DNA of 64,000 nucleotides, from the NCBI RefSeq assembly GCF_057098645.1, contig NZ_CM169472.1. One strand, written 5' to 3'. Below are positions 48,101-51,100 of the stretch, one piece after another (the first letter of the stretch is position 1; each line of letters opens with the position of its first letter). The position numbers are program-made.

Positions 48101-51100
48101 ACTGTCTCAGGCCGCATTAGGTAAGCTGGTCAAAGTGGCTCACGTAACAATTTCTCAATGGGAAAGAGATGAAACACAGCCAGCGGGGAAGAGATTATTC
48201 GCACTGAGCCAGGCGCTTCAGTGCTCGCCGACTTGGCTTCTTTTTGGAGATGAAGATAAGCAACCAGGCGAACCGATCCCAGATAATCAGCCAGTCAATC
48301 TGACAGAAGATCAAAAAGAGTTGCTTCAACTGTTCGACGCACTGCCTGAGTCAGAGCAAAAGGCTCTGTTGTCAGAGATGCGTGCTCGAGTTGAGAATTT
48401 CAACAAACTTTTTGAAGAACTACTCAAAGCTCGCAAAAGAAGCGCAAATAAATAACCCCCCTTTTTTTCGCAACTCTCTGTAATAAAAAGCACAAACTTT
48501 CAAATACTTGTGTTTTTTACATCAAGAAGCTTAGGTTTTTCTACACAAAAAGCTTGACCATAACTCTTAGGCTATTCTAAATTCTACTCATCAAGACACC
48601 GCACGGTGTTCTCAGCAAACAGTTCCGCTACCCGGCGTTAAGGGGAAGCAGAGGATTTCTCAGTGGGCGAAGTCAAACATCAGAATGGAAGGCGTCCAGG
48701 GATCAGCAAAGAAACAGCGATGGCGCTTTATATTGATATCAGCGCCATTGCCGGACAGGTAAGAGTTATCAGAGCGGTAACTAAGCGGTATGCGCCTTTA
48801 CTTCAGAAAGTCTCTGGTGAGTGCACCGAAGATATTGTCAACGATTTCGTCATCGAACTGCGAGGACTCATCTTCAGTTACAAGGTGACCACAATTTTTG
48901 CAGATGGCTCCCGCGAAACTGTCAGAGCCCTGCGGCTTAAAGGATGTGTCAAAGACTTAGCCACCACATTCTGGGCAAGAAAACTTGATTGTATTCATAA
49001 CCAATTTCCTCTCGAGTAACAGACCCCTCAGAGGATACCACCTCGCCTGACGTGGTTAAAAAGCAGGCAACGCTAACCACAAGGAGCCGACATGCAGAAA
49101 CGAGACCCCGTCATCATCGCGCCAGACTATACCGATGATGAACTTTATGAGTGGATGCACCAGAAAATTAAGGCGGTGCAGGACCTGAAATGGGCCAATG
49201 AAGCCAGGGCTAAGCAGGCTGAAAATCTGTCCGCTCTGGAGCAGGATATCACCAATCTGGAAAAAGCAGCGGCATTAAGCATTGCCAGAATGATTACATA
49301 CCCACGTTAATAGCTAACCAACGAGGCTAATAATGGAATTTAAAGATTTACCAACGCCATTACAGGAAATGGCATCGAATATAGTTCGTTCACAACTGGC
49401 TACTCTTGACCTTAGTACCGCAGAAAAAGAAACCATCGATAATATGGTTCGTAATGTGCGCAATGCTTTTTCTGGGCTATATGGTTCTGATAATCAAAAG
49501 CAGGAAAGCGATGTTAATAAACGGGTAATTTCTGTTTGCGTGAATGGCCATGTTCTTTCATCAATCAAAACAGAAACGGCGACAGTCTTCGATTGCCTTT
49601 GCATTGTACAGAGCCTTGTTGATGCCCTGTTTCGTTCAGTGAATTTAGAAAATGATGCAAATCTGCGAGGGCGCATAATAGCACATCCATATGCACATAC
49701 TTTAGGCTCTGTGGATATCAAAGATCCCACAAATCTTTAATGAAATAGTTAACGCGAATTGTACTTGCTCTTTCGGTTGCTTTCAGAATACGCGTTGAAA
49801 CTGCTGGCGGTAATTTGGTATTCCATTTATTAAAATCATGCCCGGGAAAGTACTCTTCGAAAATACTTTTAACTGCAGACTCGCCTATTGAAATGCTGCT
49901 TACCATGCGATTTTGATAAAGGCATTTAGCAATAAGAGTTGATTTTAACATTCACCCTCCTGAGGGTTGGTAATTAAGGAGTTCTCCACGGGTGAAGTGG
50001 AGTGCGTGCGCCGGACACGGGTGAACATCCGGCACTGACAGTTTACTGAAAGGATATTTCTCTGAAAAGTCAGACCATAACGCGAAAGCGCACGGCGAGG
50101 TAGCTGGTTCATAGATAGCCTGTCGTTAAATTTTCGTCGACCGTGCGCTTCCGGTTGTGGCAATCCGCGAAATGGCGCGGCGGTAAGTATGGAGGGGTTA
50201 TTCCTTCCCCGTTGAGGACACCGGGTTGTCAGGTTGACCATACGCTTAAGTGACAACCCCGCTGCAACGCCCTCTGTTATCAATTTTCTGGTGACGTTTG
50301 GCGGTATCAGTTTTACTCCGTGACTGCTCTGCCGCCCTTTTTAAAGTGAATTTTGTGATGTGGTGAATGCGGCTGAGCGCACGCGGAACAGTTAAAACCA
50401 AAAACAGTGTTATGGGTGGATTCTCTGTATCCGGCGTTAATTGTTAACTGGTTAACGTCACCTGGAGGCACCAGGCACCGCATCACAAAATTCATTGTTG
50501 AGGACGCGATAATGGAAACGTTATTACCAAACGTTAATACGTCTGAAGGTTGTTTTGATATTGGTGTTCTGCTCAGTAACCGGGAGTTTACGGAAGATGC
50601 CATTAAGATGAGAAAATATGAACCTTATCTTCTCAATGATAATTCCATACTTTCCAGAATTGCCCTTCTTGAACTTGGTATTATCGGAGAACAGCAGTGA
50701 CTTCAGCATTTGCACTGGTGATGACCGTTTTTCTTATAACGGGTGAGCCACAAAATGTGATTACCGGAATTTATGACAGTAAGTCATCCTGCATTCAGGT
50801 AAGGGACGAACAAAAAATCCCCGGTGAATGCCTCCCGTTAAAAAAAGTATCGCTGAACCTGAATAACGAAATACCGGCTGGATAACCCGCCAGCCATATT
50901 AACGCCATACCAACGGATTAAAAATGCCAGCAATGGCAGGGATTCGTTCACCCTGAAATCTGTAATGAGGTTAAAACAAAATGAGTAAAGTCTTTATTTG
51001 CGCCGCCATTCCGGACGAACAGGCAATAAAGGAAGAAGGTGCCGTCGCTGTAGCCACTGCCATTGAAGCCGGTGATGAACGTCGCGCCCGCGCAAAATTT

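Follow-up and report, generated by a model that had tools for sequence, protein, structure and literature searches.

A modular leader RNA with a conserved pseudoknotted domain precedes DicF in a dicF-dicB-ydfD-like prophage module of Escherichia coli

The closest described system is the dicBF operon that Escherichia coli K-12 carries in its cryptic prophage Qin (Kim), arranged ydfABC-dicF-dicB-ydfDE, in which the small RNA DicF pairs through a 5' single-stranded seed with the ftsZ, manX, xylR and pykA mRNAs. Northern blots and primer extension in K-12 showed that a 190-nt DicF species arises through RNase III and the 53-nt form through RNase E (PMC10448788), and processing of K-12 DicF by both enzymes was described by Faubladier et al. 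in 1990, as summarised in PMC9438474. A 72-nt DicF is also an RNase III product (PMC5069750, PMC9438474), terminated transcripts of 1146 nt and read-through transcripts of 1608 nt both exist in K-12 (PMC10448788), and as many as four copies of dicF occur in EHEC strains (PMC7873438). The literature already covers DicF and DicB, the operon that encodes them, the precursor pathway through RNase III and RNase E, and the rise in dicF copy number in EHEC. In the temperate coliphage HK022, put RNA suppresses termination in cis via the RNA polymerase beta-prime zinc-binding domain.

We analysed a 64,000-nt stretch of contig NZ_CM169472.1 (assembly GCF_057098645.1), referred to here as the window. Sequence comparison confirms that it holds the known and well-studied cell-division-inhibitor module dicF-dicB-ydfD-like in an EHEC-type prophage, and the order DicC/DicA-ydfC-leader-DicF-dicB-ydfD-like-exonuclease is the same as in Qin. 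The initial annotation had placed the DicF sRNA here together with its terminator, and this is borne out: the Rfam covariance model RF00039 matches 50286–50337 over its full length with 76.7 bits, where the gathering score is 48, and the 53-nt sRNA (50285–50337, plus strand) and its U-tract (50338–50342) are the same as K-12 in every column of the alignment with Qin. Since all 53 positions match K-12 dicF, the DicF seed is intact. The intrinsic terminator is a GGCGGUAUCAG...CUGCUCUGCCGCC hairpin followed by CUUUUU, which a simple terminator scan passed over, the loop and the internal loops being larger than the scan allows. As the annotation also had it, dicB (50512–50700; Pfam DicB PF05358, 129.5 bits) and a ydfD-like gene (50697–50885; Pfam DUF1482 PF07358, 56.4 bits; phrog_1092) follow downstream of dicF on the plus strand, with a 4-nt stop-start overlap at 50697–50700. 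Both alleles are strongly diverged from K-12, which the initial annotation had not noted. DicB and the YdfD-like protein share 61% and 48% amino-acid identity with their K-12 counterparts, while the adjacent RNA region is near-identical, with 97–100% nucleotide identity across the leader, DicF and the dicB 5' UTR.

Upstream of the operon lies a DicA/DicC immunity pair (NCBIfam DicA, 241.6 bits, 48048–48455; DicC, 167.6 bits, 47744–47971 on the minus strand). A dicBp-like promoter is predicted by a consensus scan at 48554–48583 on the plus strand (TTGACC, a spacer of about 17–18 nt, then TATTCT/TAAATT), an assignment made purely by homology. It has the same -35 hexamer and 5' leader as Qin, the leader at about 48590–48650 being identical to that of K-12 dicBF, and in an alignment with K-12 and strain MS 198-1 the hexamer is conserved and about 60 leader bases are invariant. 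Where Qin has ydfA and ydfB, the window has an ORF of 99–118 aa (48663/48720–49019; phrog_21318), and ydfC is the only gene of the ydfA-ydfB-ydfC set present before dicF; the absence of ydfA and ydfB is a variant gene complement and not a failing of the core module. The ydfC gene itself (49092–49310, plus strand; phrog_1744; also ydfC in the RefSeq annotation) encodes a protein with 94% amino-acid identity to K-12 YdfC.

From the end of ydfC at 49310 to the start of dicF at 50285 is a gap of 974–975 bp, in agreement with the roughly 975 bp first estimated, and the ORF list contains the extra 135-aa ORF reported there (49333–49740, plus strand). What had been overlooked is that the additional spacing is a discrete insertion of 634 bp that includes a minus-strand gene; pairwise alignment with K-12 Qin places it at 49329–49962, between ydfC and the conserved leader. 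Its two genes are both phage ORFs of unknown function. The 135-aa ORF matches phrog_1363 (E = 4.8e-47; WP_000394552.1, hypothetical protein) and has no match in Pfam or NCBIfam, and a 77-aa ORF (49718–49951; phrog_10348, E = 1.1e-47; WP_000920491.1) runs antisense to the operon on the minus strand from a ribosome-binding site, AGGAGG, at 49957–49962. The leader had been taken to start at 49950, which is too far upstream: its conserved part begins at 49963, and 49950–49962 belongs to the insertion and includes the start codon and ribosome-binding site of the 77-aa gene. The layout ydfC-insertion-leader recurs in 576 (about 10%) of 5426 complete E. coli genomes and in published PPompW phages, and the core finding is therefore already known. 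Because the downstream exonuclease, xis and int are intact, the prophage in the window is less decayed than Qin.

The conserved leader (49963–50284, about 320 nt) shares 97% identity with the ydfC-dicF spacer of K-12 Qin. It is GC-rich, as initially described, in relative terms (53% G+C, against 47% for 47000–53500 and 39% for the inserted ORFs) but not in absolute ones. Folding of 49950–50340 gave -146.7 kcal/mol (z = -2.8 versus dinucleotide shuffles), and the minimum-free-energy fold recovers all three hairpins named in the initial annotation, each of which is present in the sequence: gcgcacgg (50088–50095) with ccgtgcgc (50141–50148), gccgga (50010–50015) with tccggc (50028–50033), and ctgac (50035–50039) with gtcag (50069–50073). 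The 97% identity to an experimentally processed K-12 sequence supports the reading of this region as a structured, processed DicF precursor. Rfam searches at E ≤ 10 over 49300–50950 turned up DicF and STnc100 alone, the latter below threshold, and left the leader unmatched, and ARAGORN found no tRNA-like gene over 49800–50600.

The leader is modular, and its modularity is the new part of this analysis: module A comprises three hairpins, module B a long duplex, and module C four helices and a pseudoknot. The hairpins of module A (49963–50073, plus strand) occupy 49984–50002, 50010–50033 and 50035–50073, as seen in the sequence, the minimum-free-energy fold and RNAalifold; their pairs are almost invariant among 19 variants, with RNAalifold covariation neither for nor against them. 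Short plus-strand ORFs in module A (GTG after AAGGAG) were considered and set aside, as their stops differ between the window and K-12, judged by eye on the alignment. Module B (50075–50160, plus strand) is a long imperfect duplex built on the core 50088–50095 with 50141–50148 and extended by pairing of CCAUAAC (50075–50081) with GUUGUGG (50154–50160); its fold has z = -3.3, and the 19 variants include one compensatory pair. In both modules covariation is uninformative because the sequences are too conserved. RNase III presumably acts on module B, and for the 190-nt DicF species the calculated 5' end, at about 50148, falls inside the largest of the hairpins named in the initial annotation (gcgcacgg...ccgtgcgc). 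This position is arithmetic from the published 190-nt length; RNase III and RNase E positions given here are computed from fragment lengths. Between module C and DicF is a single-stranded, A/U-rich linker (50269–50284, plus strand) ending ...AUCAAU before UUUCUGG, at the RNase E cut site that gives the DicF 5' end.

Module C is a conserved structured domain formed by the last 115 nt of the modular leader (50154–50268, plus strand). Its helices are P1 (50154–50161 with 50261–50268), P2 (50165–50169 with 50176–50180), the variable hairpin P3 (50193–50197 with 50207–50211) and P4 (50223–50231 with 50251–50259), and GUAUGG at 50187–50192 pairs with CCAUAC at 50238–50243 to form the pseudoknot. Across 77 sequences 94.6% of cells are paired, with both-side changes in 11 pairs; none of 500 shuffles reached this, and slid controls gave 33–57%. 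In a set of 33 non-redundant sequences 92% are paired and 12 pairs have both-side changes. G-U pairs are abundant and assign the structure to the plus strand. A single-sequence minimum-free-energy fold recovers P1, P2 and P4, and module C by itself is thermodynamically unremarkable (z = -1.7). Because the two loop motifs were required by the pattern used to retrieve most homologues, invariance of the loops is partly built in, and in the pseudoknot a single pair varies. The GUUGUGG sequence can pair either with the upstream CCAUAAC as part of module B or with the 3' strand of P1. We also considered the sequence 5' of module C and the P2 hairpin as a nut-like boxA/boxB element and set it aside, as the likeness to boxA, judged by eye, is weak (TGCTCTC, TGCGCTT and AGCGATT versus TGCTCTT).

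No Rfam family matches module C, and literature searches found no description of the motif. The initial annotation had passed over this pseudoknotted domain, which is common to unrelated phages such as P1. It is present in the ban-operon leader of phages P1 and P7, in phages cdtI and Ayreon and in Stx2c phages, as well as in Citrobacter, Serratia, Trabulsiella and Izhakiella prophages, and an exchangeable sRNA-like terminator cassette always follows it. The P1/P7 leader (annotated 'dicF-like region', NC_005856 68791–68892) carries module C at 76–81% identity, with P4 and the pseudoknot both showing compensatory changes, followed by an intrinsic terminator and by an STnc100-like leader before a putative division-inhibition/tellurite-resistance gene (tciA/terB). 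It differs from the window in that modules A and B are absent, the sequence of the closing helix is different, the sRNA-like segment does not have the DicF seed, and tRNA genes separate the terminator from the STnc100-like leader. Module C is also promoter-proximal there, about 40 nt after Pban, and a Pban-to-terminator transcript would come to about 200 nt, equivalent as a unit to the 190-nt DicF species. Ayreon likewise has it near a promoter, about 300 nt after the annotated pL, and in cdtI and a phage deposited as Actinobacillus phage it lies 330–360 nt after the repressor gene; in the window some 1.6 kb separate it from the promoter upstream.

In 87 of 93 unique downstream sequences a script located a hairpin plus U-tract within 30–90 nt past module C, and in the remaining 6 one is seen by inspection. 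Module C and the terminator hairpin are a variable 10 to 50 nt apart, the sRNA seed between them is swapped among alleles, and at least six different sRNA alleles are found behind the same module C. Rac-type sRNAs upstream of kil resemble the window in having a stem-B-like hairpin of RNase III type, an sRNA with a GGCGG...CCGCC terminator, and a AAAGUGAAUUUUGUGAUG leader, but have a different seed, and in 78 of the 80 Rac-type kil loci sampled module C is precisely absent and the module-B-like stem is joined directly to the DicF-like sRNA. Module C is dispensable for production of DicF-like sRNAs because it is missing from these loci, and a role purely as a processing aid is thus not compelling.

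We consider it likely that these features together describe the early-left (pL-type) dicBF operon of a PPompW-type lambdoid prophage in an EHEC-like E. coli, with a leader that RNase III and RNase E process and with module C as the 5' body of the intermediate. Processing in the window strain is extrapolated from K-12. Transcription would start at the DicA-repressed promoter at about 48554–48583 and pass through ydfC and the inserted genes into the non-coding structured leader. RNase III would then cut the module B duplex at about 50148, a calculated position for a cleavage shown in the 97%-identical K-12 sequence, to yield an RNA of about 190 nt consisting of module C, the short linker and DicF. 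As in K-12, RNase E would cut the A/U-rich linker at 50284/50285 to release the 53-nt, Hfq-dependent DicF, which would repress ftsZ and other mRNAs. Module C may be the 5' portion that gives the 190-nt intermediate its structure; it may fold fully only once RNase III has removed CCAUAAC, the competitor for the 5' strand of P1, and the folded domain could present the linker to RNase E, stabilise the 190-nt intermediate, or both. The DicF 3' end would come from its own intrinsic terminator, and polymerases that read through would enter a second RNase III duplex at 50338–50503 and proceed into dicB and the ydfD-like gene; both DicF 3' ends are shown in K-12, and the duplex is predicted in the window.

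Less likely than not, module C belongs to an undescribed family of structured phage RNAs, shared by lambdoid and P1/P7-like plasmid prophages, with a function of its own rather than being inert precursor; this could be to control whether polymerase passes the sRNA terminator into the cell-division-inhibitor genes, or to bind a host factor. One version of this is that module C is a cis-acting, put-like RNA that, folded while nascent, modifies RNA polymerase for read-through of DicF-type and later terminators, allowing expression of dicB/kil and recombination genes in phages without N protein. HK022 putL and putR are similarly structured early-operon leader RNAs of N-less temperate coliphages, located upstream of terminators, and the hairpin and U-tract past module C must be transcribed through for downstream genes to be expressed, consistent with the coexistence of the 1146-nt and 1608-nt transcripts in K-12 (PMC10448788). 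The position of module C shortly after pL in Ayreon and after Pban in P1/P7, where this promoter is C1-controlled, points the same way, as does the lack of an annotated N gene in Ayreon, cdtI and the phage deposited as Actinobacillus phage. A search for an N-like antiterminator among the Ayreon ORFs downstream of module C gave only PHROGs of unknown function, and modules A and B, though not C, are present in phiSTEC1589-Stx1c, the single phage with an N gene that was examined. We nevertheless regard a put-like role as unlikely: put is a two-stem V of about 70 nt (PMC9378689) whereas module C, at 115 nt, is built of four helices plus a pseudoknot, each phage has a single copy with none in the rightward operon, its distance from the promoter in the window is large, and the Rac-type loci have an sRNA terminator upstream of kil without it. 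Homology with HK022 put was rejected, as module C has no sequence or covariance-model likeness to putL or putR (model R1, best score 6.8 bits, E about 1, over HK022 22,000–34,000 with filters off).

That module C acts in trans as a structured RNA made in abundance upon prophage induction, for example to titrate a host protein as a sponge or decoy, with DicF as a separate passenger cassette, would fit its movement independently of the sRNA seed, its presence in phages of lambdoid and P1-like type and in several genera of Enterobacterales, and the far greater conservation of the RNA region than of neighbouring protein genes in the window. It has no known partner, however, it is optional in Rac-type phages, and an RNA of its size is unreported in the K-12 Northern blots, which were probed for DicF only (PMC10448788); we consider this reading unlikely. 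A riboswitch-like aptamer whose ligand sets termination versus read-through at the DicF terminator would account for the compact pseudoknotted fold, its highly conserved unpaired nucleotides and its place immediately upstream of an intrinsic terminator, and in a single-sequence fold of the 190-nt species GGCGCGGCGG of module C can pair alternatively with the 3' half of the terminator. This pairing is impossible with the P1/P7 terminator sequence, though, and the variable distance to the terminator hairpin, the swapping of the intervening seed, the absence of any Rfam riboswitch family at E ≤ 10 and the lack of association with metabolic genes make an aptamer very unlikely. Least probable is that the leader is instead a protein-coding gene on the minus strand, where a 112-aa ORF with a TTG start (49945–50283) spans the entire leader uninterrupted in the window, K-12 and phage Tritos. 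We rejected it as coding: the ORF is broken by a frameshift or stop in variants L006 and L007, has no Pfam match and is unannotated in most RefSeq records, and the conserved helices contain G-U pairs so often that only the plus strand fits.

One side result of this analysis may matter: the conserved pseudoknotted domain that would make up the 5' part of the 190-nt DicF intermediate also heads the P1 ban operon and the pL leaders of N-less coliphages. If module C controls read-through or sRNA maturation, this would explain how toxic dicB/kil-type genes are gated behind an sRNA terminator, and would constitute a second RNA-only solution, besides HK022 put, for early-operon control in temperate phages.

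The dicB 5' leader (50338–50503, plus strand) is predicted to form a further structured element, in which a long-range duplex of about 27 bp pairs 50338–50365 with 50476–50503 around three hairpins. The duplex fold has z = -4.8, covers the dicB Shine-Dalgarno sequence and holds the calculated 3' end of the 72-nt DicF (50356). The STnc100 model (RF02076) matches 50335–50544 with 38.7 bits (E = 1.8e-6), below the curated gathering score of 47, and this region is probably homologous to STnc100.

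DicF is matched once in an Rfam gathering-threshold scan of the whole window, at 50286–50337 (76.7 bits against a gathering score of 48), and is followed by dicB (50512–50700; Pfam PF05358, 129.5 bits), an overlapping DUF1482/YdfD-family gene (50697–50885; Pfam, 56.4 bits) and an 823-aa exonuclease (50981–53452; Pfam), all three from the ORF listing. Upstream of dicF lie DicC (47744–47971, minus strand; NCBIfam, 167.6 bits), DicA (48048–48455; NCBIfam, 241.6 bits) and ydfC (49092–49310). The initial annotation described a dicF-dicB-ydfD module with a structured, hairpin-rich precursor leader, and this is confirmed by the presence of DicF, the genes, the fold and the relative G+C content, together with all three of the hairpins it listed (50088–50095/50141–50148, 50010–50015/50028–50033 and 50035–50039/50069–50073), each of which is in the minimum-free-energy fold. 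The 49950–50340 segment folds with −146.7 kcal/mol (z = −2.8), and the leader (49963–50284) is 53% G+C, compared with 47% in the surrounding prophage and 39% in the neighbouring inserted genes. The interpretation as a processed precursor was also right, and is already established biology, since processing has been published for the K-12 sequence (PMC10448788). The observation is genuine and was read correctly, but what it describes is a known module within a known class of EHEC prophage.

The 2 kb at 49000–51000 matches O26:H11 and O111:H8 chromosomes at 99.8–100% identity, and at least 80% of it is held by 576 of 5426 complete E. coli genomes; published 'PPompW' prophages, an EHEC-type class, carry the same leader at 100% identity. 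EHEC strains carry up to four copies of dicF (PMC7873438). Alignment with the K-12 cryptic prophage Qin gives 97% identity across the leader from 49963 on, 100% across DicF and nearly 100% across the dicB 5' UTR. The RNA-coding stretch is the best-conserved part of the mosaic, because the adjacent proteins diverge much more from K-12 (DicB 61% and YdfD 48% identity, against 94% for YdfC). The C-terminal half of DicB is essentially another sequence from that of K-12. The 5' ~60 nt of the operon transcript (48590–48650; …ACACCGCACGGUGUUCUCAGCAAACAGUUCCGCUACCCGGCGUUAAGGGGAA) are the same in the window and K-12, though the operator and spacer region differ, and part of this stretch recurs in a Rac-like 'Actinobacillus' phage (L005 2440–2480); by sequence comparison it is a candidate for a conserved element of the leader.

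Qin lacks a discrete 634-bp insertion that the window has after ydfC (49329–49962). It contains a 135-aa plus-strand ORF (phrog_1363) and a 77-aa minus-strand ORF with a strong ribosome-binding site (phrog_10348); neither has a Pfam or NCBIfam match, and both PHROG families are functionally uncharacterised. The 77-aa gene runs against the dicBF operon and has an upstream region that overlaps with the DicF leader. Comparison locus L006 has other genes at the insertion site, and because different genes are found at this same spot in other strains we regard the ydfC-leader junction as an insertion hot spot.

The K-12 dicBF operon is expressed as a single transcript from dicBp, detected as a 1146-nt species that ends at dicF and a 1608-nt read-through species; its 190-nt DicF species requires RNase III and its 53-nt species requires RNase E (PMC10448788, Ragunathan et al. 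2023), bearing out the older work of Faubladier et al. 1990. RNase III also makes the 3' end of a 72-nt DicF form (PMC5069750, PMC9438474). This published pathway is the best-supported account of the locus. Comparison with other loci divides the leader into three separable modules: A (49963–50073), with three hairpins, B (50075–50160), a long imperfect duplex (z = −3.3), and C. For a 190-nt species that shares the DicF 3' end (50337), the 5' end would lie at ~50148, the final base of the ccgtgcgc strand, and this calculated position fits an RNase III cut within the module B duplex. A transcript from the DicA-controlled promoter would be cut by RNase III in module B and by RNase E in the A/U-rich linker (...AUCAAU / UUUCUGG) to yield DicF, with transcription either stopping at the DicF hairpin or running on into a second duplex (50338–50365/50476–50503); module C, we infer, would make up the folded 5' portion of the 190-nt intermediate. 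Comparative support for the module A and B folds is thin, with one compensatory pair among 19 non-redundant variants that hardly vary. We rejected a minus-strand protein gene in the leader, as its ORF is interrupted in variants.

What is new is modest: part of the DicF precursor is a pseudoknotted RNA domain that is conserved and shared with phage P1 and other phages. Module C (50154–50268, plus strand) comprises helices P1, P2, P3 (length-variable) and P4, with a pseudoknot in which GUAUGG pairs with CCAUAC in the P4 loop. Rfam searches with the leader match no family, and we found no description of module C in the literature. Homologues were collected by BLAST searches of E. coli genomes and of phages and by pattern scans of IMG/VR and one genome per species; the helices were first spotted by eye in these homologues and then tested by pair counts on alignments. 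Among 77 distinct sequences 94.6% of cells are paired and 11 of 33 pairs change on both sides; no shuffle in 500 is as good, a count that is not a probability since the sequences are not independent but related, and slid controls pair at 33–57%. After redundancy filtering, 33 sequences give 92% paired, with 12 pairs changed on both sides. Compensatory changes include GGGUUGUCA/UGACAACCC to GGGUAACCA/UGGUUACCC, GUUGUGGC/GCUGCAAC to GUUGUGGU/ACCACAAC and, in the pseudoknot, GUAUGG/CCAUAC to GCAUGG/CCAUGC in phage P1-type sequences. The structure is assigned to the plus strand because G-U pairs are frequent, and helices P1, P2 and P4 are recovered by folding the window sequence alone. Loop invariance is partly imposed, as the scan patterns demanded both loop motifs; in a sample gathered through DicB, module C is present in 75 of 80 loci, and single loop substitutions occur in only 8 distinct variants. 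The GUUGUGG strand of helix P1 has an alternative partner, CCAUAAC (50075–50081), that extends module B, and RNase III cleavage would release it so that helix P1 closes.

In phages P1 and P7, module C lies ~40 nt downstream of the C1-controlled Pban promoters, overlaps an annotated 'dicF-like region' and is followed by an intrinsic terminator, with tRNA genes, tciA/terB and ban all downstream. The primary Pban transcript of phage P1 would correspond to the unit of module C plus terminator, ~190–200 nt, the same unit as the 190-nt DicF intermediate. The non-coding architecture is that of the dicBF operon, but with tRNA genes inserted in between; an STnc100-like leader (33–43 bits) is directly upstream of tciA/terB. 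Module C with its terminator and the STnc100-like leader are at 3001–3160 and 4342–4461 in the phage P1 locus (L003) and at 1501–1660 and 2910–3025 in that of P7 (L010). Matches to the same region, unannotated in their records, occur in Stx2c-converting phages, and module C is also found in E. albertii, Citrobacter, Serratia symbiotica, Trabulsiella and Izhakiella.

Module C is ~300 nt downstream of the annotated pL promoter in Ayreon and 330–360 nt past the repressor gene in cdtI and the 'Actinobacillus' phage. None of the three has an annotated N gene. A hairpin with a U-tract follows module C by 30–90 nt in all 93 unique downstream sequences (87 by script, the remaining 6 by eye). The genomic context of module C fits a read-through element resembling put, the HK022 antiterminator RNA; however, module C has neither homology to put nor a similar architecture, and Rac-type loci retain the terminator yet lack module C, and we consider this reading unlikely. 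The spacing to the hairpin is variable and an alternative pairing of module C with the 3' half of the terminator is not conserved, both of which argue against a riboswitch, a function we find barely credible. That module C acts as a free-standing decoy RNA also seems improbable. The segment between module C and the hairpin is exchangeable; among its alleles are DicF, the DicF seed joined to another terminator, and several unrelated seeds. Module C itself is dispensable: it is missing from 78 of 80 Rac-type kil loci, where a module-B-like stem joins a DicF-like sRNA directly, and the only N-encoding phage looked at has this arrangement too. In the Rac-type loci (L228–L307, e.g. L228 2150–2330) the gap is clean at the GUUGU junction, and the sRNA upstream of kil has a different seed (UUGCUGUGUGUAGUCCU...).

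The second duplex, between 50338–50365 and 50476–50503, has ~27 bp and encloses three hairpins (z = −4.8). The dicB 5' leader (50338–50503) scores 38.7 bits against Rfam STnc100, below the threshold of 47. In the predicted fold the DicF U-tract region pairs with the dicB Shine-Dalgarno region, and the duplex includes the calculated 3' end of 72-nt DicF; dicB translation may accordingly depend on RNase III processing.

Four loci (L140, Serratia symbiotica; L143, Izhakiella; L144, Trabulsiella; and L113) have a large terminator-hairpin loop containing a Shine-Dalgarno sequence and an ATG, from which a small ORF traverses the terminator 3' half, a layout suggesting that termination control could be coupled to translation. 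The 'Actinobacillus phage vB_Apl-pPE4' (L005, PP818812.1) has a Rac-like immunity region, a leader 85% identical to that of E. coli and a Kil protein that at least 78 viral contigs of IMG/VR encode with 100% identity; Actinobacillus pleuropneumoniae, given as the host of this phage, seems doubtful as such. In E. coli MS 198-1 (L007 2076–2264), isrK (69 bits) and C4 antisense RNA (78 bits) are both matched at full score within a Rha-family gene, itself inserted between a truncated and an intact dicB. Elsewhere in the window, Rfam also matches an ALIL pseudoknot (8293–8409; a frameshift signal of the IS3 family), a trp operon leader (12184–12277), two minus-strand tRNA genes (39497–39736) and, inside the prophage, a hok/sok-type sok antitoxin RNA (43020–43169).
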